In this document: positions 10,271 through 61,054 of the stretch, one piece after another | How positions within the stretch are numbered: the first letter of the stretch is position 1 | Layout of the letters: each line of letters opens with the position of its first letter | Assembly (NCBI GenBank): GCA_050014495.1 | Contig: JBEKDF010000004.1 | Location: 5,302-69,301, forward strand | Length of the DNA: 64,000 nucleotides | From: Candidatus Bathyarchaeia archaeon | Lineage (GTDB): Archaea; Thermoproteota; Bathyarchaeia; TCS64 | Direction of reading: 5' to 3' | Program-made: the position numbers and the translations under genes | Notes under the pieces: model-generated | The model's input: only the letters and a program-made list of their open reading frames with translations | What the model was told of the DNA's origin: nothing | The model's database searches: none

Positions 10271-10448
10271 GATTGTAGTACAGATTATTTTCACCCCCGC
10301 GCGTGCAAACATTTTCTTGAGAATCATAATCTTCTGTTGCACGTGATTTGCTACCGAATTTCATGGTTGTATCGGAAAAATAAAAGGCAATTCGAGTCAT
10401 CTTTAAAACTTAAAATTCCTAGTATTTTTAGGGTTGTGCTTAGAGCAT

Positions 10449-10458
10449 GCGCGCGCGC
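10449..10458. repeat. (GC)5 tract abutting the mbf1 TATA box
   Basis: gcatGCGCGCGCGCctttataag. Confidence 0.95.
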
Positions 10459-10467
10459 CTTTATAAG
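10459..10467 (+). promoter_or_regulatory. Putative TATA box of the mbf1 operon
   Basis: ctttataag about 32 nt upstream of ATG 10499. Confidence 0.55.
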
Positions 10468-10498
10468 CCGATTTAACTCTCAATATTGGGGCTTCGAT

Positions 10499-11011
10499 AT
10501 GCGCTGCGAGGTATGCGGTAGAGAAATTTTGGGGCCTCCTCAGCGAAGAATAATTGAGGGGGCGAAGCTAACGGTCTGCTCTAGATGCGCCTCCTTTGGT
10601 ACCTCCGATTGGGCACCTGGCAGACCAACTCCGACAAAGACGCCGAGCAGGTCACAATTAACTTCGATGCCCGCCGCCCGTCCAAGAATGAGGAATGATG
10701 TAGAATCAGTCGAACAACTAGAGCTAATCGAGGATTACGGTACGCAGATCAGGAAGGCCCGCCAAAAACTAGGTCTATCTGAGAAGGATCTGGCCAAGAA
10801 GATGCAGGAGAAAGACTCCGTGATTAAGAACCTCGAGAAGATGGAACTAACCCCCGACAACAAGCTCATCACCAAGATCAGGAAGTACCTCGGCCTCGAC
10901 ATAGTGGAGCACACCGACGTATCTAAGTCCCAGATACTCGCAAAGCCTACGGGTGCGAAGACTATCGGGGATATGCTCCGCATAGACTCGGAGAAGAGCG
11001 AGAAGCCTTAA
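10499..11011 (+). CDS. mbf1: Multiprotein bridging factor aMBF1 (Zn ribbon + HTH)
   Basis: MRCEVCG...IEGAKLTVCSRC, DYG.QIRKARQKLGLS, TIGD; start moved to ATG 10499. Confidence 0.9.
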   Translation: MRCEVCGREILGPPQRRIIEGAKLTVCSRCASFGTSDWAPGRPTPTKTPSRSQLTSMPAARPRMRNDVESVEQLELIEDYGTQIRKARQKLGLSEKDLAKKMQEKDSVIKNLEKMELTPDNKLITKIRKYLGLDIVEHTDVSKSQILAKPTGAKTIGDMLRIDSEKSEKP

Positions 11012-11604
11012 TGGCGCGGGAAATGGAGCCAAAAAGCATAGTTATTTTAATATCTGGCACCCCTGGCACTGGGAAGACAACTGTTTCTTCGCTACTTTCC
11101 CGGGAGTTGCATGGTGAACATATAGATCTTACTCATCTCGTCAAGGAGAGGGGATTAAGCCAAGGCTGGGACGATATACGCGCAACAACAATAGCCGATT
11201 TAAAGGCTCTACGCATCGCAGTCGTCAAAATATTGGATGACTCTAAGAAGCCAGTCATCATTGATGGCCACTATTCCCCTGACATCGTATCCCGCGAAAA
11301 AGTCACCCTTATCATTGTGTTAAGACGCGCTCCCTGGGTTCTGAGGGAAGATCTCAGGGCTCGAGGATACAGCCCAATAAAAATTCGTGAGAACGTTGAG
11401 GCCGAGCTCCTCGGTACCTGTCTCGTCGACGCTTTAGCCACACAAGATACTAGAAAAATATGCGAGATCGACACAACAAGAATGGATCCCAAGGAAACAG
11501 TTAAGCTGATAATTGCCATCCTCGAAGGGGATACGGATTGCCACCACGGGGTCATCGACTGGATGAACTTTCCTGAAGTTGAGACGCTTCTAGGGGAGCT
11601 TTAA
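11011..11604 (+). CDS. AK6/Fap7-type adenylate kinase
   Basis: ISGTPGTGKTT, IDGH, RGYS..KIRENVEAE. Confidence 0.88.
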   Translation: MAREMEPKSIVILISGTPGTGKTTVSSLLSRELHGEHIDLTHLVKERGLSQGWDDIRATTIADLKALRIAVVKILDDSKKPVIIDGHYSPDIVSREKVTLIIVLRRAPWVLREDLRARGYSPIKIRENVEAELLGTCLVDALATQDTRKICEIDTTRMDPKETVKLIIAILEGDTDCHHGVIDWMNFPEVETLLGEL

Positions 11605-11607
11605 AAA

Positions 11608-11835
11608 ATGTACATAGTGGTCCGCTGCCCTAGGTGCGGAGAGCTCATGCTTGCGAACACAGCTAACCAGACAAGGTCCTGCCCAAACTGTAACAACCGA
11701 GCCGAGCTCAAGACACTCCGCATCTACGGAAAGGCCGAGACTCCTACAGAGGCAACGCAACTCATGAAGTCTCTCAAAGCGAAAGAGGGGGGTGGCGAAG
11801 ACTACAAGCCGAGTTTTAAGCGCCTCGATTCATAG
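11608..11835 (+). CDS. Small zinc-ribbon protein (DUF1922-like)
   Basis: YIVVRCPRCG...CPNC; operonic position. Confidence 0.75.
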   Translation: MYIVVRCPRCGELMLANTANQTRSCPNCNNRAELKTLRIYGKAETPTEATQLMKSLKAKEGGGEDYKPSFKRLDS

Positions 11836-11924
11836 ACTGATAGTTGCACATAGGAATTTCTTGTTGCTCAACTTTCGCATTTTTATACTGGGGGAGGGTA
11901 TCTGTGGTCTAGAGGTTAAACGAA

Positions 11925-12347
11925 ATGGCGGCTGTAACCAGCAGAAGATTCTTCGAGGAACTCGGCCTACTCGTCGGAAAGTCTGTAGCAGTCTTTGACA
12001 CGACTGGCAAATCCTACGATGGCGAGTTACTTGGGTACGACTCAAATACGCTGAGCATCTGCCTTGGCAACGTTAACACCGAGCGCGGGAAAGTACACAG
12101 GGTCTTTATCGTAGGCGGTAGCGTCGCTCGAATCCTAGCCTCAGAGAGACCATTCAACCTCGAGGGGTTAAAGGAAAGGCTGGAGAAGGTCTTCCCTAAC
12201 ATGGTACAGCTAATACCAGAGGCACGAGTCATCATCGTCATGGGAAAGATAAGGCTGAACGAGACTGGTGTTATCGAGGGGACGGGACCAGCTGCGGATA
12301 GGGTCAGGGATATTTTCCAGAGATTTAAGACCGAGACCCAAGCTTAA
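11925..12347 (+). CDS. Lsm protein with C-terminal domain (SmAP3 type)
   Basis: Sm1/Sm2 fold (GKSYDGELLGYD...LSICL) plus Lsm_C (GVIEGTGPAADRV). Confidence 0.85.
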   Translation: MAAVTSRRFFEELGLLVGKSVAVFDTTGKSYDGELLGYDSNTLSICLGNVNTERGKVHRVFIVGGSVARILASERPFNLEGLKERLEKVFPNMVQLIPEARVIIVMGKIRLNETGVIEGTGPAADRVRDIFQRFKTETQA

Positions 12348-12355
12348 TTTTTTTT
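12348..12355 (+). terminator. Oligo-T archaeal terminator
   Basis: T8 directly after the Lsm stop codon. Confidence 0.55.
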
Positions 12356-12430
12356 AATCGAAAAGTATCGACGTTTTTTTATTACAAATCGCCAAGGTGA
12401 AATACCCGATACCACACACCCTCAGCCTAT

Positions 12431-30854: not shown

Positions 30855-30863
30855 GCGCGCGCG
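30855..30863. repeat. Intergenic alternating GC tract (9 nt)
   Basis: agcaGCGCGCGCGact. Confidence 0.9.
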
Positions 30864-46751: not shown

Positions 46752-46759
46752 GCGCGCGC
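46752..46759. repeat. (GC)4 tract 10 nt beyond a stop codon
   Basis: gattGCGCGCGCcaaat. Confidence 0.9.
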
Positions 46760-46769
46760 CAAATGTTAC

Positions 46770-47054: not shown

Positions 47055-47195
47055 ATTGATCAGTCACTTTACTCCTGATCTTTAATACATATTGTTCTCT
47101 AAGAGCGTGCACATGAAGGCGCATGCTTATGAGTATTCGCTCGCGTGTGCGAGATTCTTTATTTAGTCGCAAAGACCAAAAGGGTCTCGATCAAA

Positions 47196-47705: not shown

Positions 47706-47726
47706 TCCCGCACACGCGAGCTGCAT

Positions 47727-47921
47727 CTAGATTTTGGCCACGTTTATTGTCTCAGAGGCGAATAAATCCTCCACCTTGAACAGGGATTCAACTAGCCCTT
47801 GCTCCGATGAGTAATTGATGAAGGCTTTGAGGATCTTGCGGTTCGCGTCCAGTTCGTAGGGCCAATAGTTCTGATCCATGATTCATATGGTCTCCTCGAG
47901 TTCAGGGATCATCCAAGGCAT
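47727..47921 (-). pseudogene. C-terminal remnant of a 4,5-dihydroxyphthalate decarboxylase/NMT1-like protein
   Basis: Hand translation MPWMIPELEETI*IMDQNYWPYELDANRKILKAFINYSSEQGLVESLFKVEDLFASET; starts at GCGCGC 47922-47927. Confidence 0.7.
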
Positions 47922-47965
47922 GCGCGCTCGACACACCTTTAAGTCGGAAAATTAAAGATATCACT

Positions 47966-48826: not shown

Positions 48827-49213
48827 CCACATCAAGTTCACTAGACTATTGAAGTGCGCGATTTCTATGAACTTTTGTTCTAATTCATCGTCAGCAAGGC
48901 TCTTAAGCCCAGGCTAGCTTTGAGCAGTATTCGAGGGTGGAAATAGATAGGAGTTGCAACCTCCGCCCTTCTTTAAATCGATGGGGCTGAAGAGGCCCCC
49001 CAAAACTCGTTTAATATGGATCCTCTTTAGGGCTCCTTACCATAAGGAGTGTGTGCGTGAGGATCGGTACAAGTCTTAAGTACGCTATGAATCGATCGAA
49101 TTCTAAACCAGGTGTTCACGAATTGCATAGAATAACCGCGCTAATACTGGGAATCCTATGATTATCAGCGATCGCCAACTCATTAACCATTCCTAGAGCG
49201 TCAAGCGCCAGAT

Positions 49214-49221
49214 CGCGCGCG
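49214..49221. repeat. (CG)4 tract ending a signal-peptide-like relic
   Basis: gatCGCGCGCGgatt. Confidence 0.88.
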
Positions 49222-49364
49222 GATTTTGTCAATTACATGAAGAGGACGAGACTCTTGATTTCAAGCGCCCCCGATTGAATTAATCTCAATCAGAGACACT
49301 TGTTGGAAAAAAACCATTTAACATTAATGATTGATCCCTTTAACTAGTCACTAGGTGAGTCAAA

Positions 49365-50330
49365 TTGAAGGCGACGGCCATCGCTCACCCCATTCAGGGG
49401 TTAATAAAATACCATGGGCTGAAAGACGTGGCTCTAAGAATTCCCTTCCACGATAGTATCTCCGTATGTTCAGATGCACTGGAAACCGTCACCACGGTTC
49501 AATTCGATGAGACTCTAATGGAGGATTCAGTTGTGATCAATGATAATAGGGTCTCAGGTTCGGATCTTGATCGAATCATAGCGATTATTACCAGGCTTGC
49601 TATGATGGCGAAGAACAGCGATCACTTTAAGATAGTATCTAAAAACAATCTTTCAAACGGTAAGGGCCTCGGTTTCTCGGCATCGGGATTCGCAGCGCTG
49701 GGGTTTGCCTCACGTGAAGCTCTTGAGCTCGACATCGATGACATATCGCTCTCAGAGATAGTTAGGTTAGGGGCAGGTTCAGCTACTAGGAGTTTGGCTG
49801 GCGGTTTTTCGATTTGGTATGCGGATAAAGGAGGCAGGTCGTATGCTGAGCAGTTGGCGGGCCCCGATGCGATGGATTTCATGCAGGTCGTGATACCGAT
49901 AGCCTCCGATGTGAAAACGGATGAGGCTCACATTGAGGTTCTCAGTTCACCCCTCTTCAAAGCTAGGTTAGATCACATCGAGGATATACTGAGTTCGATG
50001 AGGGCCGCAATTGCTAGTAAAGACGTTAAGATGATAGGCAGACTTGCTGAGGAGGACACGCTGAATCTTCACGCCATAACGATGACTGGCAAGTCTCACA
50101 TAGTGTTATGGGAGCCAGATACAGTCCGGATTCTCAAGGAGGTGATTAGGATGCGGGCTGATGGTGTTTCTGCCTGGTACTCAATGGATACTGGTCCATC
50201 CGTCTTCGTGAACACCGACTCTGAGTACGTTAAGGAGGTCGCAAGGAGGATAGGTTCCCTGGATTTGTCCAATGTAATCATAAGTAGGGTTGGTGGCCCT
50301 CCAACTATATGTTATGAACACCTATTTTGA
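49365..50330 (+). CDS. mvaD: (Di)phosphomevalonate decarboxylase, GHMP family
   Basis: AHPIQGLIKYHG, GLGFSASGFAAL, R.G.GSA.RS..GG, SMDTGPSV. Confidence 0.9.
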   Translation: MKATAIAHPIQGLIKYHGLKDVALRIPFHDSISVCSDALETVTTVQFDETLMEDSVVINDNRVSGSDLDRIIAIITRLAMMAKNSDHFKIVSKNNLSNGKGLGFSASGFAALGFASREALELDIDDISLSEIVRLGAGSATRSLAGGFSIWYADKGGRSYAEQLAGPDAMDFMQVVIPIASDVKTDEAHIEVLSSPLFKARLDHIEDILSSMRAAIASKDVKMIGRLAEEDTLNLHAITMTGKSHIVLWEPDTVRILKEVIRMRADGVSAWYSMDTGPSVFVNTDSEYVKEVARRIGSLDLSNVIISRVGGPPTICYEHLF

Positions 50331-50378
50331 ATCTAGTAAAAGAAGGCGCAGAGGATACGTGCGGGCGAAAAAAGGAGA

Positions 50379-51551
50379 CTAAGATGCTGTGACCTTGAAG
50401 GTCTTGAAACCCTCACTCATTAAATGAATCGTGTAGCTGTTTCCCTTGACCGGTGTCACAGCTACCTTGGGAGATTTATCTCGGCCATCAACATGTAGAC
50501 TTATAACCCCGTTGAAGGTTAGCGTCGCCGAATTACCCGGCTTTAGGACCAATCTTGATGTGCCCCAGTCACCCATCGGATTCATGTCACCGAATATAGG
50601 AGTCAGGGTGTCACCACTGATTTTGAAGGGTATGGAGTCGGGTCTGTCCATCCCCATGAAGCCCCATGGCATACCACCCATGCCTGGCTTACCCGACTTG
50701 TCCTTTCCATTCTGCTGTCCATAACCTGCGATGGTAGAGGTGACGTTGAAGTCGCCACTGAGAGTGATGCTGGAGATCGTTGCGTTGGCTTTGCCAATGT
50801 TCTTGATGGTCACACTGAGAGTTGTGACGTTGCCCTTGACTGAGAGACTCGACGAAGTCACCGTAATGTTGTTCGAGGCTCTGCGGTACTCCTGACTCAG
50901 CTTGTTGTTATCATCATCGCCTATCCTCCATTTTGCGCCGACTTGTGTCTGAGTATCGAGAACGTTAGATTTGACTATCGCTGTTGCGCTCGGAGATAAA
51001 ACGAAGTAGCTCACCAAGCTTCCAGTCGAGTTCATCGCGTTGATCTGGACGAGTGTTGGCCTTAGATCGATCAGGGCACCAGTCTTCGTTCCATTCAACT
51101 TCGTTTCTCTTAGTGAGACCAGTAGATTATCGGAGAGCATCGTCACTGGGTATACTTTATCGCTTACCTTCGCCTCAGCTGCGGAGATCTCGAACTGAAG
51201 TTTATCCACTGTTGAGCCTGTGGGAAGACTTAGAGTAGCAATTGTTTGGGTCATGTTTACAAGTGAGAGTAGATTTACCCTACCCGACTCTTGGGCTGCA
51301 ACCCAATTTGATGAGCCGTCGCTGGCTACAACGTGGAGCTGGATGCTTGAATAGGTCACGTTAAGTTGAGTAGTTCCCCTTGGAACGTTTGGTGGGTCAG
51401 TTAGCATGACGAGGAAACTCGTCTGACCTGTTTGTGTTGTCATACTCGTTGGATTCAACGCCGTGTTGGCGTAGAGGGATGTCCCGATGATGGCCAGAGC
51501 CACAATAACCGCGGCTGCACCATACTTCAAGGAAAGTCTCTTCGTTGCCAT
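50379..51551 (-). CDS. Secreted/membrane-anchored DUF4382-like protein with Ig-like C-terminus
   Basis: N-terminal TM, LTDPP, NVTYSSIQLH, VNLLSL. Confidence 0.65.
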   Translation of the reverse strand: MATKRLSLKYGAAAVIVALAIIGTSLYANTALNPTSMTTQTGQTSFLVMLTDPPNVPRGTTQLNVTYSSIQLHVVASDGSSNWVAAQESGRVNLLSLVNMTQTIATLSLPTGSTVDKLQFEISAAEAKVSDKVYPVTMLSDNLLVSLRETKLNGTKTGALIDLRPTLVQINAMNSTGSLVSYFVLSPSATAIVKSNVLDTQTQVGAKWRIGDDDNNKLSQEYRRASNNITVTSSSLSVKGNVTTLSVTIKNIGKANATISSITLSGDFNVTSTIAGYGQQNGKDKSGKPGMGGMPWGFMGMDRPDSIPFKISGDTLTPIFGDMNPMGDWGTSRLVLKPGNSATLTFNGVISLHVDGRDKSPKVAVTPVKGNSYTIHLMSEGFKTFKVTAS

Positions 51552-51658
51552 CTACATTTACCTAAACAATAGGCGTCTCGACTTTGTATATGATGCTACA
51601 CATTTTAATGACTTTTCAGGGTATTTGAAGACCCGTTCAAGATCCTTGAATGGCGTTG

Positions 51659-52105
51659 TTAATCATTTGTTTGCCTGTTAGCGGAGTCAACAACTAGCCT
51701 ACGCCACAACCTGAGAGACTCATACCAGAGGAGAACGACCATCGCTAGGGAAGCTGTGATGAGATAAATCGTGAATCCAGTGGATAGGAGGGATTCAAGT
51801 GAAAAGAATACGATCAGGATCGTGAACAGAACGGCGAAGAAGAGGAACTGTGGAACCAGGGCAGTTCCCACCTTAACATATCCCTCCAAGATCTCGGTGG
51901 ATGACTCCTCCGAGGCAACGTACCTGCCCTCCTCATCTTGTCTCACGTATCCGGCTTCGACGAGTCTACTAAGGTGGTACGATGCCAATGAAGGAGTTGA
52001 TAGTCCTACGCCCCTCTGAACATCCCTGAGACCACTTGGACCATGTGTGACAAGGTAAAGGTACGTCCTTAGGGCGTTTCCTGTGATCTCTTTAGTTTTT
52101 TTCAA
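51659..52105 (-). CDS. Membrane-tethered winged-helix transcription regulator
   Basis: R.Y.YL...GPSGLRDVQRGVGLSTPSLASYHL..L...GYV plus two TM helices. Confidence 0.8.
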   Translation of the reverse strand: MKKTKEITGNALRTYLYLVTHGPSGLRDVQRGVGLSTPSLASYHLSRLVEAGYVRQDEEGRYVASEESSTEILEGYVKVGTALVPQFLFFAVLFTILIVFFSLESLLSTGFTIYLITASLAMVVLLWYESLRLWRRLVVDSANRQTND

Positions 52106-52455
52106 GGCTGTTCACCTGGCGTACGTGATACCGTTTATTACTTGAGTCGAGATCGATAGGGTGTCTCTTTCCAGTCCAATACGCCTACCATACCGTTCAC
52201 GTTTGCGTAGCGTTGATGCCTGACCTCCGAGAGTAACGCTTTGGTGAACAAGTTTTGGAGATGCTCCTATTGTTATAATATAAATCCCACAATGGAACAA
52301 GGTACCTTATAGCGTCTTCTGAATCAGAATATGTATCTAAAATCAATCAAATATCCACTTCTTAACTATAGTGTGTTCACGCTTTGGTAGTCTGAATCTT
52401 GGGTTTTCCTGTGGACAATATTTAGTGTTTATTTGTGGCTCTGTCGAGTGGCTAC

Positions 52456-53358
52456 TTAAATAACAACTTGCTCCCCAGGTACTCTTCTGAAAATTTGTAC
52501 ATCACCGACATGGCTAGCCTTTGTCAGGAACCTTACGAGTCTCTCGATCCCGAAGCCTGCTCCAGCTGAGGGTATAAATCCCTTCTTTGCCTCAGCGACG
52601 TAGGCGTCGTATATTCTCATGTTAAGTCTGTCTTTTCCCATCCTCTCAATGATGCGCTTGTAATCGTATTCTCGTTCCGCGCCGGATAGGGCTTCACCAA
52701 ATCCCTGTGGGTATACGAGATCGTAGTTCAGGTAATGACCGGGATTTGATTCATCCTCCTTATCGTAGAATTCTCTCTTGTGGCATAGAGCCCAGAATGG
52801 TTGTTCATTTGCAATCGATGCCTCTTTCTCCCAGTCTTTACCGTATTTGCTCTCTAATTCATGGGTTGTGTAAACCTTGAATGGTGTTTTGAACTCGAAG
52901 GGACGGACACCGATGCTCTCAAAGAGATCAAGGTAATTCTTCAGCTTCTCACCTAGAAATTCGAAGTATTTACCCATCAAAGACATCACATCCTCCTTTT
53001 TACCATTCGCGATCTCAAAGTCTAGCTGGGTAAACTCAAACAGATGCTTTCCCGATACTATTCTCTCGGCCTTCTCTAGTCTAATGTTGGGAGAGAAGAT
53101 GAAGATCTTACCGAGGTTCTTGACGGCAACCTGCTTGTGTAGAATCATCGAATTCATAGTGTAGAGAAGCATTCCATTGTACTCAATCTCAGGAGTCTTG
53201 ATTATTGACGATCCTGGATCAGGGCCAAGGGGATCGGTGCTTCTACCCAGTATGACGGGTAGCAATTGAACAAAGCCTTGTTCGTGGAAGAAGTCCGAAG
53301 TAAGCTTTAGTACCGCACTTCCGATCTCGATTCTCGTTGTTAATTCTGGTACTTGCAT
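52456..53358 (-). CDS. asnA: Archaeal asparagine synthetase A (AsnRS-related)
   Basis: TDPL, SMILHKQ, SPNIRLE, HLFEFTQLDFE, SGAEREY, SAGAGFGIERL; no anticodon-binding domain. Confidence 0.88.
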   Translation of the reverse strand: MQVPELTTRIEIGSAVLKLTSDFFHEQGFVQLLPVILGRSTDPLGPDPGSSIIKTPEIEYNGMLLYTMNSMILHKQVAVKNLGKIFIFSPNIRLEKAERIVSGKHLFEFTQLDFEIANGKKEDVMSLMGKYFEFLGEKLKNYLDLFESIGVRPFEFKTPFKVYTTHELESKYGKDWEKEASIANEQPFWALCHKREFYDKEDESNPGHYLNYDLVYPQGFGEALSGAEREYDYKRIIERMGKDRLNMRIYDAYVAEAKKGFIPSAGAGFGIERLVRFLTKASHVGDVQIFRRVPGEQVVI

Positions 53359-53668
53359 CTAGATCTCAGAAAAACGTATCATCGCTGCATATTAAGATTT
53401 ATACAATAATATTGGAGTAATTTCATTATAATAGTTTTTTTCATCATTGGAATTGTAATAAATACAAAAAATGATGCGAAGTTAAGAAACATGTATGGAG
53501 GCAAATTAGGATTTTTAATTGCGTTGAACATGTGCACACGAACTGTTATGAAGTTATTATTAGACCTTGTCGCTCACTATTCACAGCGATTATTTTACAT
53601 GCTTTATTCTATTTTTAAGGGGCGTTCGTGCTTGCGACACATGAATTTAGACTAGGTGATGATTGATA

Positions 53669-54772
53669 CTAGACATTGTTGATGATGTGCGAGAAAGCTG
53701 CTAGAATAATTGAGGTCATTATTAAGAATAATCCGGAGATGACCCCTATTATCAAAACGAATGCAGCTGGGAGGCTTAGTGTTTGGAGATTCAGGTATGT
53801 GGTGAGTAGGTAAGCTCCGGCGGAGATTCCGATAGCCAATGCGAATAGACCGGGGAGCCCGAAGAAGAGGTAAGATTTATTCGACATGGTTATTATGAAG
53901 CTTTGAGATGTTCCCTGGTCCTTCGGCTTTTCCTGGGTTTTTGATTGTTGAGTGACTCCTGTTTGGGATATGGGTGCCTCTTCCGTTTGTGTCTCGTAAT
54001 CGTTTGTATTGAATGGTTCTCTCTGTATCTCGATCGGGACCTCCCTTAGGATGAGTCCGTTACCGGAGGCTATTCCAAGGATCCTAGAGTGGCTCTCTAG
54101 GACTTCTGTGGGGGCTGAGAGGAAGGCTCTTAGGGATTTCTGGGAAAACGCCATGAAGATGCTCGGTAGATCATCTTCGTCGACTGTCTCGGATCGATTT
54201 GTTCCATTTGGTTGTTGGGTTCCAAAGACCACGTCTGCCTCTCTCGATTTGATTAGGGAGAGGATCTTCGGTATCTCTGAGGGTTGAAGGTTGGGGTCTA
54301 CATCCATTATCAGGATCATTGCTGGGTCCAGTTCGAGTGAGCGTTCAAGGAGGGTTCGGAGTGTCGCGAGGCGTCCGAGGCTGGTCTCGTGTCGGATCAC
54401 TGTGGCGCCTAGGCCTGCGGCTACTTGCCCCATGAGATCTTCGGAGCCGTCATCGCATACTAGAATTCGGTCAAAGTATTGCTTAGATTTGATGATAAGT
54501 GGTCCTATCTCCTTCTCTTCGTTGTAGGCTGGGATGCAGAGAAGGGTTGTGATTGGTTTAATCGGGGGTTGTGGGGAGTGTATCAGTTGAGGCATGTATG
54601 TGGCCTCGTTTCTCGCTTCAACCATCTCAACACGTTGTGATGGGTTCGGAGGAGCCTCCGCTGAGGTTTTTGATTTTTTAGTTACTCGTTTTCTGTCTGG
54701 CTTTGAGATTGACTGCATCTTCTTTTTTACTACCTTCGTTTTAACGAAGTTTAATCCGCTATCTGTGTCCAT
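53669..54772 (-). CDS. GT2 glycosyltransferase-like protein with two C-terminal TM helices
   Basis: IPAYNEE, VCDDGS.D, MDVD. Confidence 0.8.
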   Translation of the reverse strand: MDTDSGLNFVKTKVVKKKMQSISKPDRKRVTKKSKTSAEAPPNPSQRVEMVEARNEATYMPQLIHSPQPPIKPITTLLCIPAYNEEKEIGPLIIKSKQYFDRILVCDDGSEDLMGQVAAGLGATVIRHETSLGRLATLRTLLERSLELDPAMILIMDVDPNLQPSEIPKILSLIKSREADVVFGTQQPNGTNRSETVDEDDLPSIFMAFSQKSLRAFLSAPTEVLESHSRILGIASGNGLILREVPIEIQREPFNTNDYETQTEEAPISQTGVTQQSKTQEKPKDQGTSQSFIITMSNKSYLFFGLPGLFALAIGISAGAYLLTTYLNLQTLSLPAAFVLIIGVISGLFLIMTSIILAAFSHIINNV

Positions 54773-54904
54773 GTATTAAACCCCTTAGAATTTCTTTACT
54801 GTTGGACCTGATTTTCCCCTAGTTCCATTTACTTGATTAGAATAAAATGCATTATGGATATGTAATAGCTAATACGGATTTCAAAATAATGAATTGTATA
54901 TCAT

Positions 54905-54914
54905 GCGCGCGCGC
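54905..54914. repeat. (GC)5 tract upstream of a TATA-like box
   Basis: catGCGCGCGCGCacgttgattataatt. Confidence 0.92.
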
Positions 54915-54962
54915 ACGTTGATTATAATTACGTCACACAATCTTACTAGAGAAGTTGACCTT

Positions 54963-55208
54963 ATAAGTGCCACCGCAACTACCAAGAAAACCGACTATAT
55001 CGCTGTGCTAGTCGCTTACATGAGCTTCGTCGTGCTGGGGATACCAAGCGCGATGCGCGCGCGCATCGGTATAGGTGTCTTTCCCGGCATCGCAGGGGTT
55101 CTTGCCGACCGCAGTAGCTTGGAGGCAATACTCTTCGTATTATTTGCGCTGTCAATCATGATGATGATCTTATACGAGTTGACTATTCGAGCGCATTTGG
55201 GGGTGTAG
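54963..55208 (+). pseudogene. MFS transporter remnant: TM1 joined to the last TMs through (GC)5
   Basis: IAVLVAYMSFVVLGIPSAM - [GCGCGCGCGC 55055-55064] - IGIGVFPGIAGVLADRSSLEAILFVLFALSIMMMILYE. Confidence 0.7.
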
Positions 55209-55343
55209 CGGTCATTGAAGGATCGCGTTGATGAGTTTTAGGATGCGTATACGTGCGCGTAAACTATTACCTCACGTTTACAGGACCCTATATGATAACT
55301 CCGAGTTTTTTATATATACCGAGGTTTTCTCCAGTCTGTGATA

Positions 55344-55382
55344 CGCGCGCGCATTTTATCTATTTGTAGGTGAGGCGCGCGC
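55344..55382. repeat. Two alternating GC tracts (55344-55352, 55375-55382)
   Basis: ataCGCGCGCGCat...gagGCGCGCGCtct. Confidence 0.9.
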
Positions 55383-55387
55383 TCTGC

Positions 55388-56510
55388 TTATGTAGCATAT
55401 GATAAGTTGAAGGCATTTGTGAGGCTTACTTTCGGTGTGATGCCATCACTTTTTACGAGGTCCCATGTCCACGACATTGTCCCCTTCCAGCCCCAGAAGT
55501 AGGCGGCGTTTACGCCCATGCTGTTGAGTTTAGCAATGTGGCCACTCATGTAGTTGGCGGTTACTACGGGTGTGGTCGCGTAGCCATTCCACTCAGTCAC
55601 ATCGACCTTCTTCCCATTGGCGTGAGCCGTGTTGATGTAACTCTGGAGGTCATTCCACCCTGATCCCCAGACGGTGTAACTTGGGTTCCGGTGGTCTAGA
55701 TACTCATTCACGAAGGCGACATCGAGGGTGTCAATAGTCTGTGATGTTGTGAATTTTTTAAGCCCAGAGAGGTCGAATCTGACTCCTACCAATACATCTG
55801 GCTTAATAGACTTGACGAATGCTCTCGCATCAGTCCATAGCTGGACTGTCTGCGTCTTCTGTGTCGTCGTCATTGTGTATCTTGAGGGCTCATTCAGCAC
55901 GGAAACGGATTCGATGGGAAGGTCGGATATCTTCTGTATTGTATACCTGATCCAGTTGAGATACTGTGTCTTTCCTGATCCGTTGAGGATTAACCTAGTA
56001 TTTCCTCCCAGATTGGTGGGGGTGGCGAATCCGCTAGTGCTTGATGGGAAGAGTGTGTGGAAGTCAAGATGGGCCTTGAGTTCGGCTGTAGCGGCGGCTT
56101 GTAGGACGTGGCGGAGTTTGGTATATTCGCTGGCGATGTAGTTGTCATTTGATGATTCGTAGGTTCCCCAGTAGAGTACCACGCTCACTCGGTCCATTCC
56201 CGCTGACTTGAAGAGCTCGAAGTTGGCCGCGAAGCGGGTTGGTGAGTCTGACTCGTAGTCGGTCCGGTAGTTGACACCGAGGTCAATGCTTGAGTCTGTC
56301 GTTTTAATTGGGGTGATCGAGCTCTGCGTGTACACCGCCTTTAGAGTGTGAGATGAGCCCATTGTTATATAAATTGGGTTCAAGCTCACTGCGTTGTCCC
56401 CATCCTTGATCCAGTGGTCGAAATGGTACCTAGTAGAGAGTGTTGCTGTGACTTTTACGCTAGGTCCGCTTTGGTAAGTTCTTACGCCTGTTCCTGGGCT
56501 GGTTGAGCCA
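55388..56510 (-). pseudogene. Clan GH-A glycoside hydrolase preceded by a 5'-truncated InlB-B-repeat-like domain
   Basis: LGVNY, NEP acid/base, VTEW nucleophile, FW.W; frame stays open upstream of 56389 (GSTSPGTG...VKVTAT...YHFDHW...NPIYITM...LKAVY) until (GC)5 and TAA. Confidence 0.72.
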
Positions 56511-56520
56511 GCGCGCGCGC
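56511..56520. repeat. (GC)5 tract at the truncation point of the glycoside hydrolase
   Basis: gagccaGCGCGCGCGCacgtttaaaa. Confidence 0.93.
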
Positions 56521-56785
56521 ACGTTTAAAATAATAATAAAATATTAATATTAAAGGGACAAAATATGTTTAAATTTCATTTATTTGATAATTTCCCATTT
56601 TTCACGTTATTTTATTCGCGTGCGTTTGTAATAAGTGAGCGTGAGTGAATAACTGGGTCAGATTTTATAGTTATCCCCACCATCTCACGTTGGTCTTCCC
56701 AAGGCGTTCGGGCAAATGTATCCAGTGAGAATCTTTATCCAGCTGTGCTTGTGTGGTAAGTCGGGTAGTCTTCTATAAGCATTTT

Positions 56786-57529
56786 TTAGAACGTGATATG
56801 GCAGGGGATATTCAGCTTCCCGAATTTCAATGAGAGCTCCTGTCCCATTTGATGGAAGTATTCATCACTGCGCTTATCCTCCAAGCCATATTTCCGATAC
56901 ACCCAGTCAGCGTAGTGGTAATTCATTCGATCAACCAAAACGTAGTCCACCTTCCCGGCTAGGAGTTCCGGGAGAGTCTCTGCCCCCGGGAGGATTGGCG
57001 CGATCATGGCGTAGGTCTTCACTTCGGCTCTATGGAACTCGTCGAGGACCTTTATCCTTTCACCGATTGGGGGCGCGTTGGGCTCGAATAGCTTCCTAGT
57101 CTCATCCTCGGAGGTGGTCACCGTGAATCCGACCTCGAACTCCCTAGCCTCCTTGATGATGTCCATGTCACGTAAGACTAGTGGTGAACGCGTCTGAATT
57201 ACCACCGGCCAATTGTGTTGCTTAAGTATCTCGAGGCATCTCCGCGTTAGTTCGTATTTCTCTTCCAGCGGTTGGTATGGGTCGCAGACGCCGCTCACCC
57301 AGACTCTTCCACGCCTCTTCTTGCTGATCTCCACTCTTAGCAGGTCTGGGGCGTTTATCTTCACGTCGACGAATTCTCCCCAAGGCTCCCTGTGTCCGCT
57401 GAATCTCTTAATGAAGCGGGCGTAGCAGTAGGAGCACCCGTGTTGGCAACCCGTGTAGGGGTTGATGACGTAGGTGTAGACCTTTGAGACGTTGAGGATT
57501 GATTTTGCCTGGACTTCCTTTACCATCAT
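56786..57529 (-). CDS. Radical SAM protein, SPL/Rv2578c-like
   Basis: NPY.GCQHGCSYCYA, DPYQP.E, T.S.L..RD, FEP. Confidence 0.9.
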   Translation of the reverse strand: MMVKEVQAKSILNVSKVYTYVINPYTGCQHGCSYCYARFIKRFSGHREPWGEFVDVKINAPDLLRVEISKKRRGRVWVSGVCDPYQPLEEKYELTRRCLEILKQHNWPVVIQTRSPLVLRDMDIIKEAREFEVGFTVTTSEDETRKLFEPNAPPIGERIKVLDEFHRAEVKTYAMIAPILPGAETLPELLAGKVDYVLVDRMNYHYADWVYRKYGLEDKRSDEYFHQMGQELSLKFGKLNIPCHITF

Positions 57530-57540
57530 GTCTTATCGTC

Positions 57541-58566
57541 TCAGGTTGGTGGGCTCAAGCCCTCGATTGGTGCCGGGAACCAGCCCCCTAATTTAGTCTT
57601 TGCGTCGGCGAGTAACTCAGGAGTGTAGGTCCCAAACATGTTGTTCCCAGAGGAGATGTAGAGCATCTTCCCGAGGTCGAATCCCGCAACTTGGCAAATT
57701 AAAGCGTCGAGCTGAGCCACGCTGCTGCTAACTCCGATGTCCCGTGTGAACGGGGTTGGTCCGTCTCCACGGGTTGCCTCGAATAATCTAATGAGGTTGA
57801 AGAGGGCCCCATATACCTTATCCATGTCGAGTATGCTGTTATCCAGCCTCTTATTCTTGTAGCCATGCCACCACGCTCTCACGGGGTCCGATGTTAAGCC
57901 AAATAGGTTCTTCATCGTGAGGCTCGGGTACTCCTTGCGTTTGCTCAGGCTGATGAGGGTGGAGTCGCGGTGCCTGAATAGTTTCTCGGGGACGAGGCCG
58001 TAGACTTTCTCGATTTTTGCGGGTGGGTATTTTGACTCTACGGCCTCCTTGACGATCTTCGGATCAGCGACATATCCCGCCCATGTCTCGTCGGTGGCGT
58101 TGACATACTCGATGCCGTTATCCTTGAAGAAGTCGAGGTAACCGTATTTCTTCAGGTAGAGGTTATTCTCCTTCATCAAGTGGCTCCAGTGGGGCCCGTT
58201 TATGAACCAGTCCCAGTCGGGGTTCTTTAACAGCCACCTCCAACCTCTGCCCTTAAGGAGCTGGTTCCAGTCCAGCTCCACGCCGTCTGCCATGAATCGT
58301 AGGCCGTTTGGATCCAGTATCCTCGGTCTCCAGAGGAGGTGTCCCTCGGTGACGATGATCTTGCCCTTGGCTGCCGCCGTGATGCATTGTAGAACATCGA
58401 GGTTCTTCGGGTAAATTTTTTCAACTGCTACCATGTCGACTTTGACGATGAGTGGGTCCGAACCTGGTATCTTATTCTTTAGTAGACTCGTCAGTTCTGC
58501 GGGCTTATATACCCTTGAGAACGTCGAATCTCCGATTTGGATGTAGAAGTCATCAAGGGTTAACAA
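57541..58566 (-). CDS. Hypothetical protein, DUF362-like
   Basis: Long ORF with ISLSK.K and T.KNLFG motifs. Confidence 0.6.
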   Translation of the reverse strand: MLTLDDFYIQIGDSTFSRVYKPAELTSLLKNKIPGSDPLIVKVDMVAVEKIYPKNLDVLQCITAAAKGKIIVTEGHLLWRPRILDPNGLRFMADGVELDWNQLLKGRGWRWLLKNPDWDWFINGPHWSHLMKENNLYLKKYGYLDFFKDNGIEYVNATDETWAGYVADPKIVKEAVESKYPPAKIEKVYGLVPEKLFRHRDSTLISLSKRKEYPSLTMKNLFGLTSDPVRAWWHGYKNKRLDNSILDMDKVYGALFNLIRLFEATRGDGPTPFTRDIGVSSSVAQLDALICQVAGFDLGKMLYISSGNNMFGTYTPELLADAKTKLGGWFPAPIEGLSPPT

Positions 58567-58636
58567 TTTGTTTCGTTTATAAAATGTTTTATGAAAAAGC
58601 CTTTGCTTGTATCAAAAGGGCGCGCCTCTGAGCTAA

Positions 58637-58804
58637 TTATGACTTCATCTCCTTACACATCTCCATGATCAATGGGATGAGTTCCCCTAGGTTTGCCCAG
58701 TTCCACTCACCTGCACTAAGGTAAATATCCTCATTAGACTCTGAAGATATATCCGCACGGTTTCGTATACGTTCTAGGATTTCCTTGGCCTGCTTAGGAG
58801 TCAT
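58637..58804 (-). CDS. Small orphan ORF (55 aa)
   Basis: MTPKQAKEILERIRNRADISSESNEDIYLSAGEWNWANLGELIPLIMEMCKEMKS with purine-rich upstream ggggatggaag. Confidence 0.4.
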   Translation of the reverse strand: MTPKQAKEILERIRNRADISSESNEDIYLSAGEWNWANLGELIPLIMEMCKEMKS

Positions 58805-59119
58805 CTTCCATCCCCTAAACTTGTACTATTCTCGAACGCACGCTCCGTGGACCCCATGTGAGTGGTAATCCTCCGCATGTGCGACGTGCCATTCCCGTAA
58901 TAGTCGCAGCAGAATTTTTTACTTCCTGCTTCGCTGTGTATAACGTTTCGCATGTTTATGCAATCCTTTACTCAAGTAGTCGAGTACCAGTAATTAAGAC
59001 ATCCAAATTCGCCTAAATGCTATTGTATACGCTGTGTCGGGCCCACAATCTAATCTACCAGACAGCCATATAGCGTGCACGATTTACACATGTATTTTAT
59101 TTATTGGTGATATCAGTTT

Positions 59120-59151
59120 CGCGCGCGCATATGGATTCGAGACTGCGCGCG
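59120..59151. repeat. Two alternating GC tracts (59120-59128, 59145-59151)
   Basis: tttCGCGCGCGCatatg...actGCGCGCGtgcatg. Confidence 0.9.
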
Positions 59152-59313
59152 TGCATGGCCCCCAACCCAATGATTATTCCACTTTCTAATTCTTCCCTTC
59201 CTCTACTCATCTAATCTTCGTGCCGCGATGTATCATTAATCTGGTTTTCAGTATCTACTATTATTATAGCCTTACATTTTCCATTTTGTTTAGATATGGA
59301 GAAGAACTGATCT

Positions 59314-59493
59314 ATGGTTCAGGTTTTAATTGATATTCCCGATGAGCTGGTTCACGACATGGAGGATACTATGAATATCTATGAGCTGAGCATTGATGAG
59401 CTAGTTGTGACGGCTGTTAGGCATCTGGTGAATAAGCGCCAGCGTAAATCCTCTGCTCCGTTGATTCGTACTCGGCCCCTAGAATTCTTGTAG
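59314..59493 (+). CDS. Small ribbon-helix-helix-like protein (59 aa)
   Basis: MVQVLIDIPDELV...SIDELVVTAVRHLV; followed 4 nt later by (GC)4 at 59498-59505. Confidence 0.55.
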   Translation: MVQVLIDIPDELVHDMEDTMNIYELSIDELVVTAVRHLVNKRQRKSSAPLIRTRPLEFL

Positions 59494-59551
59494 CTTTGCG
59501 CGCGCTGCACATGCACAGAGTTATCTATGATTCCGAACATATTCACAGTTA

Positions 59552-60238
59552 ATGGATACCAAGAAGAATCCCTCGAAGAGTACTGCAAAAATAAAAGTGA
59601 CTGAGAACGGTCCTTACATAGTCACAGGGAGTATTCTCCTCTCCGAACAGATAATTGGTACCGACGAGGACGGATTCAGTGCCGTGTGGTGCTCAGGGAA
59701 GGAGTATCCCCTACAGGAGAGCTACTCGCTCTGTCGTTGTGGTAAGTCGAAGAACAAGCCTTACTGCGACGGAAGCCACATCACCACCTGGTTTAATGGT
59801 AGGGAGACTGCGAGCCACGAGCCCTACAGCAAACTCGCAAACAGAATTGATGGTCCCGACCTGAGGCTCATGGACGCCCCTGACCTCTGTGCCTTCGCAA
59901 GGTTCTGCGACCGCGGCGAAAGCGTCTGGAGCTATACACGAGACTCTAACGATCCAGAGGCGAAGAAGATTGCCATCGCCCAGGCACGCAACTGCCCCTC
60001 GGGTCGCCTCGTCACCTTGGAAAAGAAGACAAACCAAGTTTACGATGAGGGCATCGAGAAGTCTATAGTGGTTGTCGAGGACCCTCAGATGGGGTGCCCT
60101 GGGCCGATATGGGTCCGCGGAGGTATACCCATAGAGGATGCGAATGGGAAGCCCTATGAGATCAGGAACCGCGTCACTCTCTGCCGGTGTGGGAAATCGG
60201 GGAACAAGCCATTATGCGATGGCTCACACGCTCGTTAG
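59552..60238 (+). CDS. CDGSH iron-sulfur protein (two CDGSH domains plus central 4Fe-4S domain)
   Basis: LCRCG.S.NKP.CDGSH twice; C...RFC...CPSG.L. Confidence 0.92.
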   Translation: MDTKKNPSKSTAKIKVTENGPYIVTGSILLSEQIIGTDEDGFSAVWCSGKEYPLQESYSLCRCGKSKNKPYCDGSHITTWFNGRETASHEPYSKLANRIDGPDLRLMDAPDLCAFARFCDRGESVWSYTRDSNDPEAKKIAIAQARNCPSGRLVTLEKKTNQVYDEGIEKSIVVVEDPQMGCPGPIWVRGGIPIEDANGKPYEIRNRVTLCRCGKSGNKPLCDGSHAR

Positions 60239-60323
60239 TCTCTTGCGCATCGTACGCGAGATTCTGGTAAGACTCTTAGCATAAAGTGAGGATTTTTAAT
60301 AGAAACCGACATTAAATAGTATT

Positions 60324-60665
60324 ATGGCGGACCTCAACCAGGCGATAATCGTTATAATAGCAGGCATAGCAGTGGCCATCGCTGATGGCCTCATTAAGAA
60401 GACGGCCATCGGCGCTTCCCTAACCGATGCGCTAAAGAACCCTCTCATGATAGGCGTCGTGTTTCTGTATCTCGCCCAGATTGCATTTTTCACCTACGTC
60501 TTCGTGAATGGTTGGCAGCTGGGGGTTGTCGGGATTCTACAGATGGTGGCTTACTCCGTGTTTGTGCTGATCACAGGCGTCTTCATATTCAAGGAGAGCT
60601 TCACCGTGACTCAGTACTTAGGTTTTGTTTTGGCTATTAGTGGCGCTGTGCTGATCAATTTATGA
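60324..60665 (+). CDS. Small four-TM DMT/EamA-like membrane protein
   Basis: Four hydrophobic helices; G..IFKE......LG..L...G C-terminal pattern. Confidence 0.72.
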   Translation: MADLNQAIIVIIAGIAVAIADGLIKKTAIGASLTDALKNPLMIGVVFLYLAQIAFFTYVFVNGWQLGVVGILQMVAYSVFVLITGVFIFKESFTVTQYLGFVLAISGAVLINL

Positions 60666-60813
60666 ATTCAAATGCGCTCCGTTATCTTATCCCTTAAACC
60701 CCAATATATTCTGTAGACATCTGTTTCCTCGAATTCTTGGGCGTGCGTATAAGCGGCCCGCGAGTCACGATATAACGGTAGAAGAATCAAGAGCAGTGTC
60801 TGCGTTATGCACT

Positions 60814-60996
60814 TTATTCTATCAGATGCTTTCCTTCATCCATGATCTTGCTACCGTCGACTCAAATCGATGACTTCGCAATGGCGCGTCCGACTTCCAC
60901 TGTGAGGCGGTCTGTGAGAATGAGAACATGTTCACCTCTATTCATCGACATGCAAACCTCCACAACGTTTCTGGCGCCTTGTTCTAATGTTCCCAA
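60814..60996 (-). pseudogene. M29/AmpS-like aminopeptidase relic: N-terminal ~43 aa fused to last ~17 aa
   Basis: Hand translation LGTLEQGARNVVEVCMSMNRGEHVLILTD...GRAIAKSS|I*VDGSKIMDEGKHLIE*. Confidence 0.6.
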
Positions 60997-61045
60997 ATCA
61001 ATAACACACTTACAGGATTTTCTTATATGTTATATAATATGTATA

Positions 61046-61054
61046 CGCGCGCGC
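61046..61054. repeat. Alternating GC tract beside a TATA-rich element
   Basis: ttatataatatgtataCGCGCGCGCcac. Confidence 0.9.

Follow-up and report, generated by a model that had tools for sequence, protein, structure and literature searches.

Why do short runs of strictly alternating G and C recur between the genes of this peat archaeon? In the window, the 64,000-nt stretch of DNA analysed here (50.0% GC), a direct scan found 12 runs of purely alternating G/C that reach 8 nt or more, and none besides, at 10449, 30855, 46752, 49214, 54905, 55055, 55344, 55375, 56511, 59120, 59498 and 61046. These agree in number and coordinates with the initial annotation, including its four 10-mers (10449, 54905, 55055 and 56511). 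Among the shorter versions that it listed, 6-7-nt runs were present at 10298, 22082, 22627, 47922, 58620 and 59145, and those at 47709, 55243 and 63702 are mixed purine-pyrimidine runs. Seven more 6-7-mers, missing from that list, lie within ORFs (20892, 21516, 23882, 24393, 27419, 39739 and 61904) and resemble background. Of the 12 long tracts, three fall in mechanically listed ORFs (10337-11011, 54894-55208 and 60842-61087); where the tracts lie, the first two are not credible as genes and the third is probably not. For the first, relatives keep a start ATG about 40 nt past the tract at 10449; the second is without any Pfam match.

Across the whole genome (G000), 459 tracts of at least 8 nt were counted. 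The most over-represented 8-mer of the non-coding DNA was GCGCGCGC, with 417 copies observed versus 15.3 expected under a second-order Markov model. Run-length counts were 481 (6 nt), 186 (7 nt), 192 (8 nt), 144 (9 nt), 111 (10 nt), 5 (11 nt) and 4 (12 nt). This length shoulder is peculiar to alternating G/C, other alternating dinucleotides being without one, and it breaks off abruptly after 10 nt, although tens of 11-nt runs would be expected if 10-mers were extended by chance. Under a crude gene model (80.7% coding), about 85% of the tracts are non-coding, and the non-coding share of 8-, 9- and 10-nt runs is 92%, 83% and 78%, compared with 14% of 4-nt runs; the description of the tracts as variable in length (6-10 nt) and avoiding coding DNA was thus accurate. 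Both phases and odd lengths occur, and the tracts extend as purine-pyrimidine runs, with nothing conserved outside them except a bias in the first flanking base.

Alternating-GC tracts are therefore real and far above chance frequency in this genome. There is next to no prospect that chance, base composition or an assembly artefact produced them. Counts do lie near expectation in congeners of 55-60% GC, but the excess here was found in non-coding DNA of 41% GC, and contigs of independent public runs bridged all 13 tracts tested between 46 and 64 kb, so the tracts are not the assembly chimeras against which the initial annotation had warned. For this genome, such an origin is refuted. It is also very improbable that the tracts are an iterated palindrome upheld by a methyltransferase and biased mismatch repair, as in cyanobacterial HIP1 (GCGATCGC). 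HIP1 is likewise a palindromic, G+C-rich octamer, lineage specific and 10- to 100-fold over-represented, but its length does not vary and it populates coding as well as non-coding DNA, whereas the tracts vary in length and phase, avoid coding DNA, on which a repair bias would act too, and are placed at homology edges.

Indeed, tracts coincide with the ends of homology to relatives or paralogs, and genes are cut off at them. Of 389 non-coding tracts, 68 touch a paralog-alignment end, compared with 14.9±3.5 for random sites. The claimed placement after stops and upstream of genes also held against null expectations, with 87 tracts no more than 30 nt past a stop codon (null 52.6±5.2) and 88 lying 41-100 nt upstream of a start (null 66±6.6); the last 40 nt before starts were depleted (25 tracts; null 49.5±5.5).

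In the window, the (GC)5 tract at 10449..10458 terminates a lineage-specific insert of 673 nt (9786..10458, + strand) on its right side and abuts the genus-wide conserved promoter CTTTATAAGCCGATTT; homology with 11 relatives resumes at 10457-10460. The insert holds CGCGCG at 10298-10303 and encodes a 101-aa ORF (9965-10270), paralogs of which exist elsewhere. It is missing from G009, G011, G023, G024, G005 and G006; in these genomes its two neighbouring genes lie directly side by side. A 6-nt direct repeat, CTTTAT, can be read from the sequence at both borders (9780..9785 and 10459..10464, + strand), its right copy being the start of the conserved TATA-like element. The 9-nt tract at 30855..30863 borders a variable intergenic segment (30648-30863) that measures 124-3434 nt in relatives, with homology resuming at query 4854-4863 in G002, G008, G009, G011 and G021.

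Further sites lie between 46 and 64 kb. The 8-nt tract at 46752..46759 lies at the exact end of a block common to G002, G008 and G012, which share onward sequence that the window does not have. GCGCGC at 47922..47927 marks the truncation point of a 195-nt 3' gene fragment (47722..47920, - strand), and the gene runs on in G000:C8, G002:C10, G023:C16 and G012:C1. Two tracts closely follow paralogous segments, one of 8 nt (49214..49221) lying 6 nt past the end of a segment shared with G000:C52 and one of 9 nt (61046..61054) lying 4 nt past the end of a segment shared with G000:C24. A 616-nt spacer (54772-55388), for which no homolog was found in relatives, carries two (GC)5 tracts (54905..54914 and 55055..55064) and a 9-nt tract (55344..55352). 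The 333-aa ORF at 55388-56389 (- strand) has an 8-nt tract 5 nt past its stop (55375..55382) and a (GC)5 tract upstream (56511..56520). The spacer 58566-59552 holds a 9-nt and a 7-nt tract (59120..59128 and 59145..59151), and GCGCGC at 58620..58625 stands 7 nt ahead of a 196-nt unit (58633-58828), the G023:C24 copy of which likewise lies between two tracts, though differently spaced. The 8-nt tract at 59498..59505 lies 5 nt ahead of a block common with G011:C57, and in G011 the copy of this gene is truncated as well, with a (CG)5 tract 7 nt from the cut. At 63700..63711, the mixed purine-pyrimidine run acgcgtacgcat ends a block with a methyltransferase gene and may be a transition-decayed tract.

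A tract-bearing joint was also found in a related strain. One contig of run X13 (depth ~5, aligned at 88% likeness) skips 517 nt (56079..56595) and has CGCGCGCG between the two sides, which reads GCGCGCGCGC with the flanking G and C; equivalently, the tract was kept while its left side lost 433 nt and its right side 76 nt. Given this deletion joint, the coincidence with homology ends and the truncated genes, the initial reading of the tracts as scars or junctions holds, and the tract is frequently missing from the uninterrupted copy.

The only recurrent sequence family beside the tracts (~52 of 2251 tract sides in G000) is the terminus of an insertion sequence (IS), ...TTTAGGGACA(A/G)G(C/G)CA, after which 36 of the 46 motif matches continue with GCGCGC or a longer run, always in the phase CA then GC and with lengths of 6-10 nt. 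A complete element on C61 (1266 nt) encodes a 343-aa protein with PF05598 and PF01609, and MITE-like copies lie on C34 and C79. The DDE transposase with DUF772 and DDE_Tnp_1, the terminal inverted repeats, the 1.1-1.3 kb length and the multicopy state with short non-autonomous derivatives (MITEs) resemble IS5 and IS1182. The best NCBIfam matches of the transposase are indeed the IS1182 and IS5 models, but all NCBIfam cut-offs are missed (91 bits vs 270; 65 vs 140). The clade further differs in its variable-length alternating (GC)3-5 tip at both ends, in the hundreds of solo tips dispersed through the genome and in the lack of a detectable target duplication at its copies in this genus. A passage in PMC6199540 gives the mechanism of the IS1182 family as unknown, and one in PMC7335449 describes its direct repeats as highly variable (2-60 bp). 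Our literature search found no description of an IS with alternating-GC tips and scattered solo tips.

The association between tract and IS extends across genomes. (GC)3-5 lies directly outside both ends of all 13 complete elements from six genomes of this genus, including subfamilies with ~33% identical transposases and different inner repeats, and no direct repeats were found outside the flanking tracts of these 13. The transposase is present in 49 of 251 genomes sampled across the class. In other families of the class, both ends bear alternating-GC tips of at least 4 nt in 14 of the 15 elements whose inverted repeat is convincing, even where the locus has 38-43% GC; a 6-bp direct repeat flanks the whole tract-IS-tract unit in G180. 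In G001 (34% GC, ~0.2 GCGCGCGC expected), the single copy lies where a remnant of this IS ends. The length spectra of IS-adjacent and solo tracts resemble each other (chi-square p=0.079), and both kinds share an outer flank biased to A (44/62 and 781/1470, respectively). Moreover, 5 of 6 true internal break points of IS fragments bear a tract, among them a colinear 451-nt internal deletion on C33, whereas intact IS copies have none, and an IS end plus tract abuts truncated genes whose paralogs are without a tract there. In a fossil found in G004, two decayed tracts enclose a repeat stub of 16 nt; no IS repeat stub lies within the window.

Because the tracts share the IS end signature and are found at sites of DNA cutting, loss or movement, they most likely represent scars left by transposons rather than the work of a new DNA-repair enzyme. 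Specifically, we consider it probable that they are terminal scars of this IS5/IS1182-like DDE clade and its MITEs, and of their deletions and rearrangements. Transposition chemistry would place a tract at each new insertion, and loss of the element would leave one solo tract behind, most likely by recombination or slippage between the two identical self-complementary terminal tracts, or by excision. An IS-made adjacent deletion, or recombination between two copies, would create a new joint that retains a tract. Hundreds of solo tracts might thus build up where they are harmless (behind stops, ahead of core promoters and within genes undergoing decay) and would then turn into mixed purine-pyrimidine runs by transitions.

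Besides the lack of a repeat stub in the window, several observations weigh against the IS-scar reading. Solo tracts outnumber IS ends by more than 10:1, and G002, G006 and G012 contain the IS with little or no tract excess. Paralogs gave no simple colinear footprint in which homology runs on past a solo tract (174 cases were one-sided and 16 two-partner), and direct repeats of at least 5 nt were absent around 366 solo tracts (3.4 expected). The stop at 10 nt counts here too, as does G022 (20 contigs, 92% complete), which has 177 GCGCGCGC at ~47% GC, no transposase match and no terminus pattern; either the IS is extinct there or the tracts have another source.

One such source would be host elements, namely Z-DNA-prone or protein-bound boundaries between transcription units, which the IS targets with duplication of 6 bp or more, so that repeated insertion and excision at the tract nibble the flanks and rearrange DNA. 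We consider this unlikely. The initial annotation had held that tracts at orthologous, colinear sites would indicate a regulatory element; such conservation was found in at least one place, and it is not the rule. At the 3' end of a mevalonate-pathway gene, G009 has the tract GCGCGCGCG, G011 and G002 have CGCGCG, and the window has the decayed acgtgcgggcg (50357..50367), one tract thus having persisted there in four species. Bracketed gene units, the tracts of G022, the position of the tract where a target duplication is expected and the X13 allele, readable as the same (GC)5 with both flanks trimmed, also suit a host element. Variants that differ by transitions, so that purines and pyrimidines still alternate, are enriched 8-10 times (internal transversions, 0.4-2.7), but this bias is also compatible with plain decay, given a ts:tv of 92:31 between strains. 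Against a host element stand tracts inside IS copies and genes whose intact sequence has none, the sole copy of G001 at an IS remnant, the place of the tip within the IS inverted repeat of distant hosts and, in G180, inside the duplication, and the 0-1 copies in sister families at ~56-58% GC. Z-DNA-forming (CG)n is similarly alternating CG extended as purine-pyrimidine runs, but 8-10 bp is short for an in vivo B-to-Z transition, and a cutoff between 10 and 11 nt is unlike a structural threshold. Such tracts are called deletion hot spots in references cited by PMC13174585. A passage in PMC4060949, reporting that prokaryotes generally suppress GC8 and RY12 patterns, also speaks against a host element.

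The initial annotation had favoured GC-tailing of broken ends by a polymerase or primase. Here, a resected break would receive self-complementary GC (e.g., from a LigD-type primase-polymerase with Ku and ligase), the tails would anneal and be sealed, and the IS would gain the same flanks through this pathway on insertion or loss. A complete Ku/ligase-phosphoesterase/LigD_Prim-Pol locus is present (G000:C3:64206-67463), and a passage in PMC13174585 provides a precedent for protein-templated synthesis of an alternating dinucleotide, poly-(dCdA) made by DRT3b. Tracts at joints whose intact copies have none, the X13 deletion, the tract-bearing G022 without IS and the absence of target duplications at genus IS copies and solo tracts are likewise consistent with end joining. 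However, Ku occurs in 15 of 18 congeners, including tract-free genomes of 34% GC and GC-rich genomes with chance-level counts, and hence does not track the tract signature, whereas the DDE transposon clade does. Moreover, the GC tip belongs to the IS inverted repeat in other families and low-GC loci, lies inside a 6-bp duplication in G180 and is limited to one transposon superfamily; the outer-flank bias to A is unexpected for random breaks, and no enzyme with GC-alternating addition was identified. We therefore regard this route as quite doubtful.

The proposed transposon scars have partial counterparts elsewhere. Yeast mitochondrial GC clusters and REP/BIME are also intergenic, G+C-rich palindromic units tied to deletions and rearrangements, but they span 20-40 nt or longer with conserved sequence, whereas only the first-flanking-base bias is conserved beyond the tracts. 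In excision footprints and solo LTRs, as proposed here, a short element-derived relic outlasts the element and shows where insertions used to lie and where rearrangements were joined. In contrast to a duplicated target or a long repeat, the relic in this archaeon is a pure self-complementary 6-10-nt dinucleotide repeat, and it is the top over-represented non-coding word of the genome.

A sequence scan of the window recovered 12 alternating G/C runs (tracts) of at least 8 nt, each where the initial annotation had placed it, and four of them were 10-mers. Its chance estimate of about two eight-mers per window was also fair, because the window has a GC content of 50.0%. The whole source genome (G000; 3.108 Mb, 92 contigs, 49.3% GC), in which the window corresponds to C4:5302-69301, contained 459 of these long tracts. 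Runs of 6, 7, 8, 9, 10, 11 and 12 nt numbered 481, 186, 192, 144, 111, 5 and 4, respectively, a length spectrum resembling that of no other alternating dinucleotide genome-wide. According to a crude, home-made gene model (3025 genes, 80.7% coding), 92% of the 8-nt, 83% of the 9-nt and 78% of the 10-nt runs were non-coding, versus just 14% of the 4-nt alternating runs. Non-coding DNA is only 41% GC, and the avoidance of coding DNA claimed initially was borne out. Against a Markov background, GCGCGCGC was the top over-represented non-coding 8-mer (417 observed, 15.3 expected). A survey (PMC4060949) describes GC8 and RY12 patterns as generally suppressed in prokaryotes. The flanks of the tracts showed no conservation past the first flanking base (position +1), and no longer repeat is therefore built around the tract; a MITE or REP repeat was ruled out as the identity of the tract itself on the same evidence. 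A HIP1-like palindrome of fixed length in coding and non-coding DNA was also rejected, since the tracts vary in length and are mostly non-coding.

The distribution of tracts over the genome was clustered (counts per 10 kb: mean, 1.33; variance, 3.70), with a higher density in convergent spacers (0.96 versus 0.56 per kb). Under a null that kept every tract within its own spacer, they were enriched within 30 nt past stop codons (87 versus 52.6 ± 5.2 expected) and 41-100 nt upstream of starts (88 versus 66 ± 6.6), and depleted in the final 40 nt ahead of starts (25 versus 49.5 ± 5.5). A fixed-offset TATA or terminator architecture was ruled out, as the flanks lacked positional signal. Internal single-base variants retaining purine-pyrimidine alternation were 8-10 times over-represented, and internal transversion variants reached 0.4-2.7 by the same measure; the excess may reflect selection that favours alternation, or simply decay in which transitions predominate. 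Between strains, metagenome contigs gave 92 transitions versus 31 transversions.

The only recurrent sequence adjoining tracts in G000 was the terminus of an IS5/IS1182-like DDE insertion sequence (hereafter, the IS). Of 46 hits of its terminal motif, ...TTTAGGGACA(A/G)G(C/G)CA, 36 continued into an alternating run of at least GCGCGC; the junction was in the phase CA|GC without exception, and the tract length differed between 6 and 10 nt among sites of one subfamily. A complete copy (G000:C61:6043-7308) encodes a 343-aa protein with an N-terminal DUF772 domain (PF05598, E = 1.2e-9) and a DDE_Tnp_1 domain (PF01609, E = 4.8e-21). The best NCBIfam matches were the IS1182 (91.2 bits; cut-off, 270) and IS5 (IS5_4; 64.6 bits; cut-off, 140) models, every one under its cut-off, so the IS is a relative rather than a member of a named family. 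It has terminal inverted repeats and multiple copies, including MITE-like (short, non-autonomous) copies of 418 and 464 nt on contigs C34 and C79. The family is present in at least 10 congeners, where recognisable ends were always followed by a tract or a transition-decayed tract, save for one recurrent junction with another repeat. At G000 C17:58774 and C48:7090 and at loci L072 and L093 of the congener G012, the IS terminus has no tract; the following sequence, the same over at least 1.3 kb in these two species, represents a second repeated element or else a composite, longer version of the IS.

Subfamilies with approximately 33% identical transposases and different inner repeats were likewise tract-ended. 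Within the genus, tracts flanked all 13 complete elements left and right (5-10 nt per tract, 11-18 nt for the two together), and none of the 13 had a direct repeat outside them. Of 251 genomes sampled from the class, 49 encoded the transposase. Among 19 class-wide loci examined, 15 had a convincing inverted repeat, and 14 of these repeats had alternating GC of 4 nt or more at both their start and their end, the fifteenth being CGTGC...GCACG. These ends persisted in loci of 38-43% GC. One genome of this sample, G180, had a 6-bp direct repeat outside tract-IS-tract. In elements of this clade generally, the tract itself could be, or conceal, a target duplication. In the literature searches made here, we found no published description of GC-tract flanks of IS ends or of such a genomic signature in archaea.

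Self-BLAST of G000, restricted to alignments no shorter than 100 nt and no more than 98% identical, gave 1798 non-redundant paralogous pairs. Long tracts were nearly missing inside the alignments (1 between -60 and -21), heaped up at their ends (96 at -10 to -1 and 48 at 0 to 9) and numbered 9-21 per 10 nt outside. There were 3375 alignment ends without a tract, 175 (105 distinct ends) with a tract in a single copy and 46 (23 distinct ends) with a tract in both copies, and this last class proved to be one element family, the IS. Non-coding tracts touched an alignment end in 68 of 389 cases, versus 14.9 ± 3.5 at random non-coding sites (200 trials; maximum, 27). Tracts of at least 6 nt touching paralogous homology in G000 comprised 174 one-sided edges, 16 cases with a different partner on each side and no colinear insertion; the 31 spanning cases were nearly all plain 6-mers within coding alignments. 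An IS end with its tract adjoined truncated genes whose paralogs, five in one case, continue past the point without a tract. Moreover, an IS copy on contig C33 is colinear with intact copies minus 451 nt, and its joint reads CGCGCGCGCG. When alignment ends due to subfamily divergence or contig ends were omitted, 5 of 6 true internal break points of IS fragments carried a tract missing from the intact IS. The presence of tracts at truncations and IS-internal joints, with none in the intact sequence, indicates that a tract can arise where none was. The tracts are thus not merely targets of the IS, and the reading in which they are a host element that the IS selects for insertion is unlikely.

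Colinearity with relatives extends over blocks as long as 9.5 kb in the 1-20 kb and 26-46 kb parts of the window, each of which has a single long tract (10449 and 30855), both at a variable spot. Conservation across the genus covers the promoter CTTTATAAGCCGATTT beside tract 10449 together with its gene; the divergent gene upstream adjoins this promoter directly in six relatives, and the window has a 673-nt insert (9786-10458) that they lack, with a 6-nt direct repeat on both sides and the (GC)5 tract at its right end. The spacer at tract 30855 ranges from 124 to 3434 nt among relatives, in five of which homology restarts at the tract. The 46.5-64 kb part is a mosaic, with almost each gene at a different locus per relative, including assemblies of 6-30 contigs. 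The initial claim that tracts mark breakpoints held here, as homology ended 0-7 nt from the tract at 6 of 6 inspected edges, and the partner copy continued without a tract at all six. Specifically, three relatives share a continuation at tract 46752 that is missing from the window, and a gene at tract 47922 is cut down to a 195-nt 3' fragment. The congener G011 carries a truncated CDGSH gene of its own, which ends 7 nt from a (CG)5 tract. The window holds no repeat stub of the IS, no Rfam family and, by ARAGORN, no tRNA.

Several smaller features lie near these tracts. A 101-aa ORF (9965-10270, + strand) has paralogs in G000 (C38), G023 (C24), G022 (C22) and G012 (C3), with homology limited to the coding sequence plus a short stretch upstream of it. 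A GC-tract-ended cassette was ruled out for this family, as the paralogs have only the coding region in common; these are small, apparently mobile or duplicating genes. A 196-nt unit (58633-58828) is 83% identical to a sequence on G023:C24 and has tracts on both sides, at differing distances, in both genomes; it had no Rfam match and may be a small gene or RNA. An EamA-type transporter ORF (60324-60665, + strand) of 113 aa is half-length, matches just one family domain and is probably a gene remnant, with unassigned sequence from there to tract 61046.

Tracts without an IS end beside them (solo tracts) matched the IS-adjacent ones in sequence, length range and flank bias. The two length spectra were similar (p = 0.079 after rough background subtraction), and A occupied the outer flank on 44 of 62 IS-adjacent versus 781 of 1470 solo sides. 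G004 retains a 16-nt repeat stub flanked by two decayed tracts; in the window, the gene beside it likewise has a decayed tract at this edge. Absence of tracts from orthologous positions in relatives, expected under the initial annotation, was seen at the 10449 promoter in six relatives and failed past a mevalonate-pathway gene, where G009, G011 and G002 share the tract. This 3' tract is decayed in the window, and the neighbours of the gene differ in every genome; some tracts are old. The two cases also bear on a possible Z-DNA-forming regulatory element, which would be expected to stay at orthologous regulatory positions: the shared tract speaks for it and the 10449 promoter against it. No adjacent pair, i.e. 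no empty site, was found when the flanks of relatives' IS copies were mapped onto G000, and tests for target duplication and palindromy around solo tracts were negative. For a tract left behind by a gained or lost element, the support is indirect and comes from the IS-internal joints and the G004 stub. Aligning the tract flanks with G004 and G025 was uninformative because intergenic DNA is not alignable at approximately 83% coding identity.

The tract excess varied among congeners, with expectations that are rough because no more than 20 kb was sampled from each genome: it was approximately 8-25-fold at 45-52% GC (G000, G011, G009, G005 and G007), present by count in G022, G023 and G024, close to the chance level at 55-60% GC and absent at 34%. 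It tracked IS content loosely; the two agreed broadly in G000, G023, G011, G009, G005 and G007. The IS was present with little excess in G002, G006 and G012, G024 had a single IS terminus at a contig end, and G022 had 177 copies of GCGCGCGC with no transposase and no terminus pattern found. In G001 (34% GC), the sole genomic GCGCGCGC is found where a remnant of the IS ends. By the same samples, GC content inside this one GTDB genus ranges from approximately 34% to approximately 60%.

On the most economical account, the (GC)3-5 tip is part of the IS clade, and solo tracts are probably leftovers of IS loss, deletion or rearrangement kept by selection at the edges of functional units. A lost element would leave a solo tract behind, an element that deletes or rearranges neighbouring DNA would leave one at the joint, and selection would spare those at unit edges. 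This account does not explain why tract length stops abruptly at 10 nt, why target duplications and colinear footprints are missing, or the case of G022. If it holds, (GC)3-5 is a readable record of the transposon past, marking element sites, gene cuts and reshuffled gene order, in a lineage of uncultured archaea common in peat, and the top over-represented word is explained without a new repair enzyme. The ends of the clade would be unusual in that their dinucleotide tip is self-complementary and varies in length up to a strict limit of 10 nt, with no visible target duplication, and tracts could serve annotation as markers of pseudogene boundaries and synteny breaks.

The initial annotation had read the tracts as end-joining scars written by a GC-tailing polymerase or primase. 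Complete genes for Ku, a ligase with 3'-phosphoesterase and a LigD-type primase-polymerase do lie side by side outside the window (G000:C3:64206-67463), so end joining is available to seal tract joints. However, Ku occurs in 15 of 18 congeners irrespective of tract content, and a host enzyme that writes the tracts by putative alternating GC addition is unlikely. Mixtures of IS-derived scars, host writing and a host element are likely.

A doubtful possibility is that the transposase staggers its cuts up to approximately 10 nt outside the repeat within (GC)n, so that GC tails reach the new site and the donor overhangs anneal with each other or with any other such end. An archaeon would then possess a universal route for rejoining sticky ends. 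Each place visited by the element would receive a (GC)n mark, repair could be seamless or deleting, and tract-bounded segments would become mobilisable; the insert at 9786-10458, with its 6-nt repeat and terminal tract, may be an example. Such a route would drive gene-by-gene chromosome shuffling, as at 46-64 kb.

The organism, whose inspected genes were all of archaeal type, occurs in many peat and wetland metagenome runs, considered here as contigs; no RNA run was among them. Contigs from four runs crossed all 13 tracts tested in window 46000-64000, bearing out the tracts against the assembly chimeras that the initial annotation had allowed for. A scan of metagenomes with a 333-aa ORF gave 80 pattern matches with no relative among them. 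In run X13 (strain approximately 1-2% diverged), one contig links 56078 to 56596 with CGCGCGCG between; with the flanking G and C, the joint is (GC)5, the same tract as 56511-56520, and relative to the window 433 nt are gone left of the tract and 76 nt right. As a single contig with a depth of approximately 5, aligned at 88% likeness, it makes the deletion suggestive rather than proven. Run X4 showed an approximately threefold depth rise with variant letters over radical-SAM/DUF362 genes (56818-58019), probably from other organisms' contigs with close homologs. A joint in X4 and X9 omitting 184 nt of a short-chain dehydrogenase gene (61489-61674), whose shorter side has 25 letters, is also probably from other organisms. 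A repeat core, GGTGGAAGTGAGGATAAGG, is dispersed genome-wide in 57 exact copies, with a spacing of at least 371 nt, and is therefore not a CRISPR array. Related words (...TCCACCTGA...) occur at approximately 62019-62060 and 62700-62730, and the loose ends of all four runs at 62727-62730 indicate that this spot is variable between strains.
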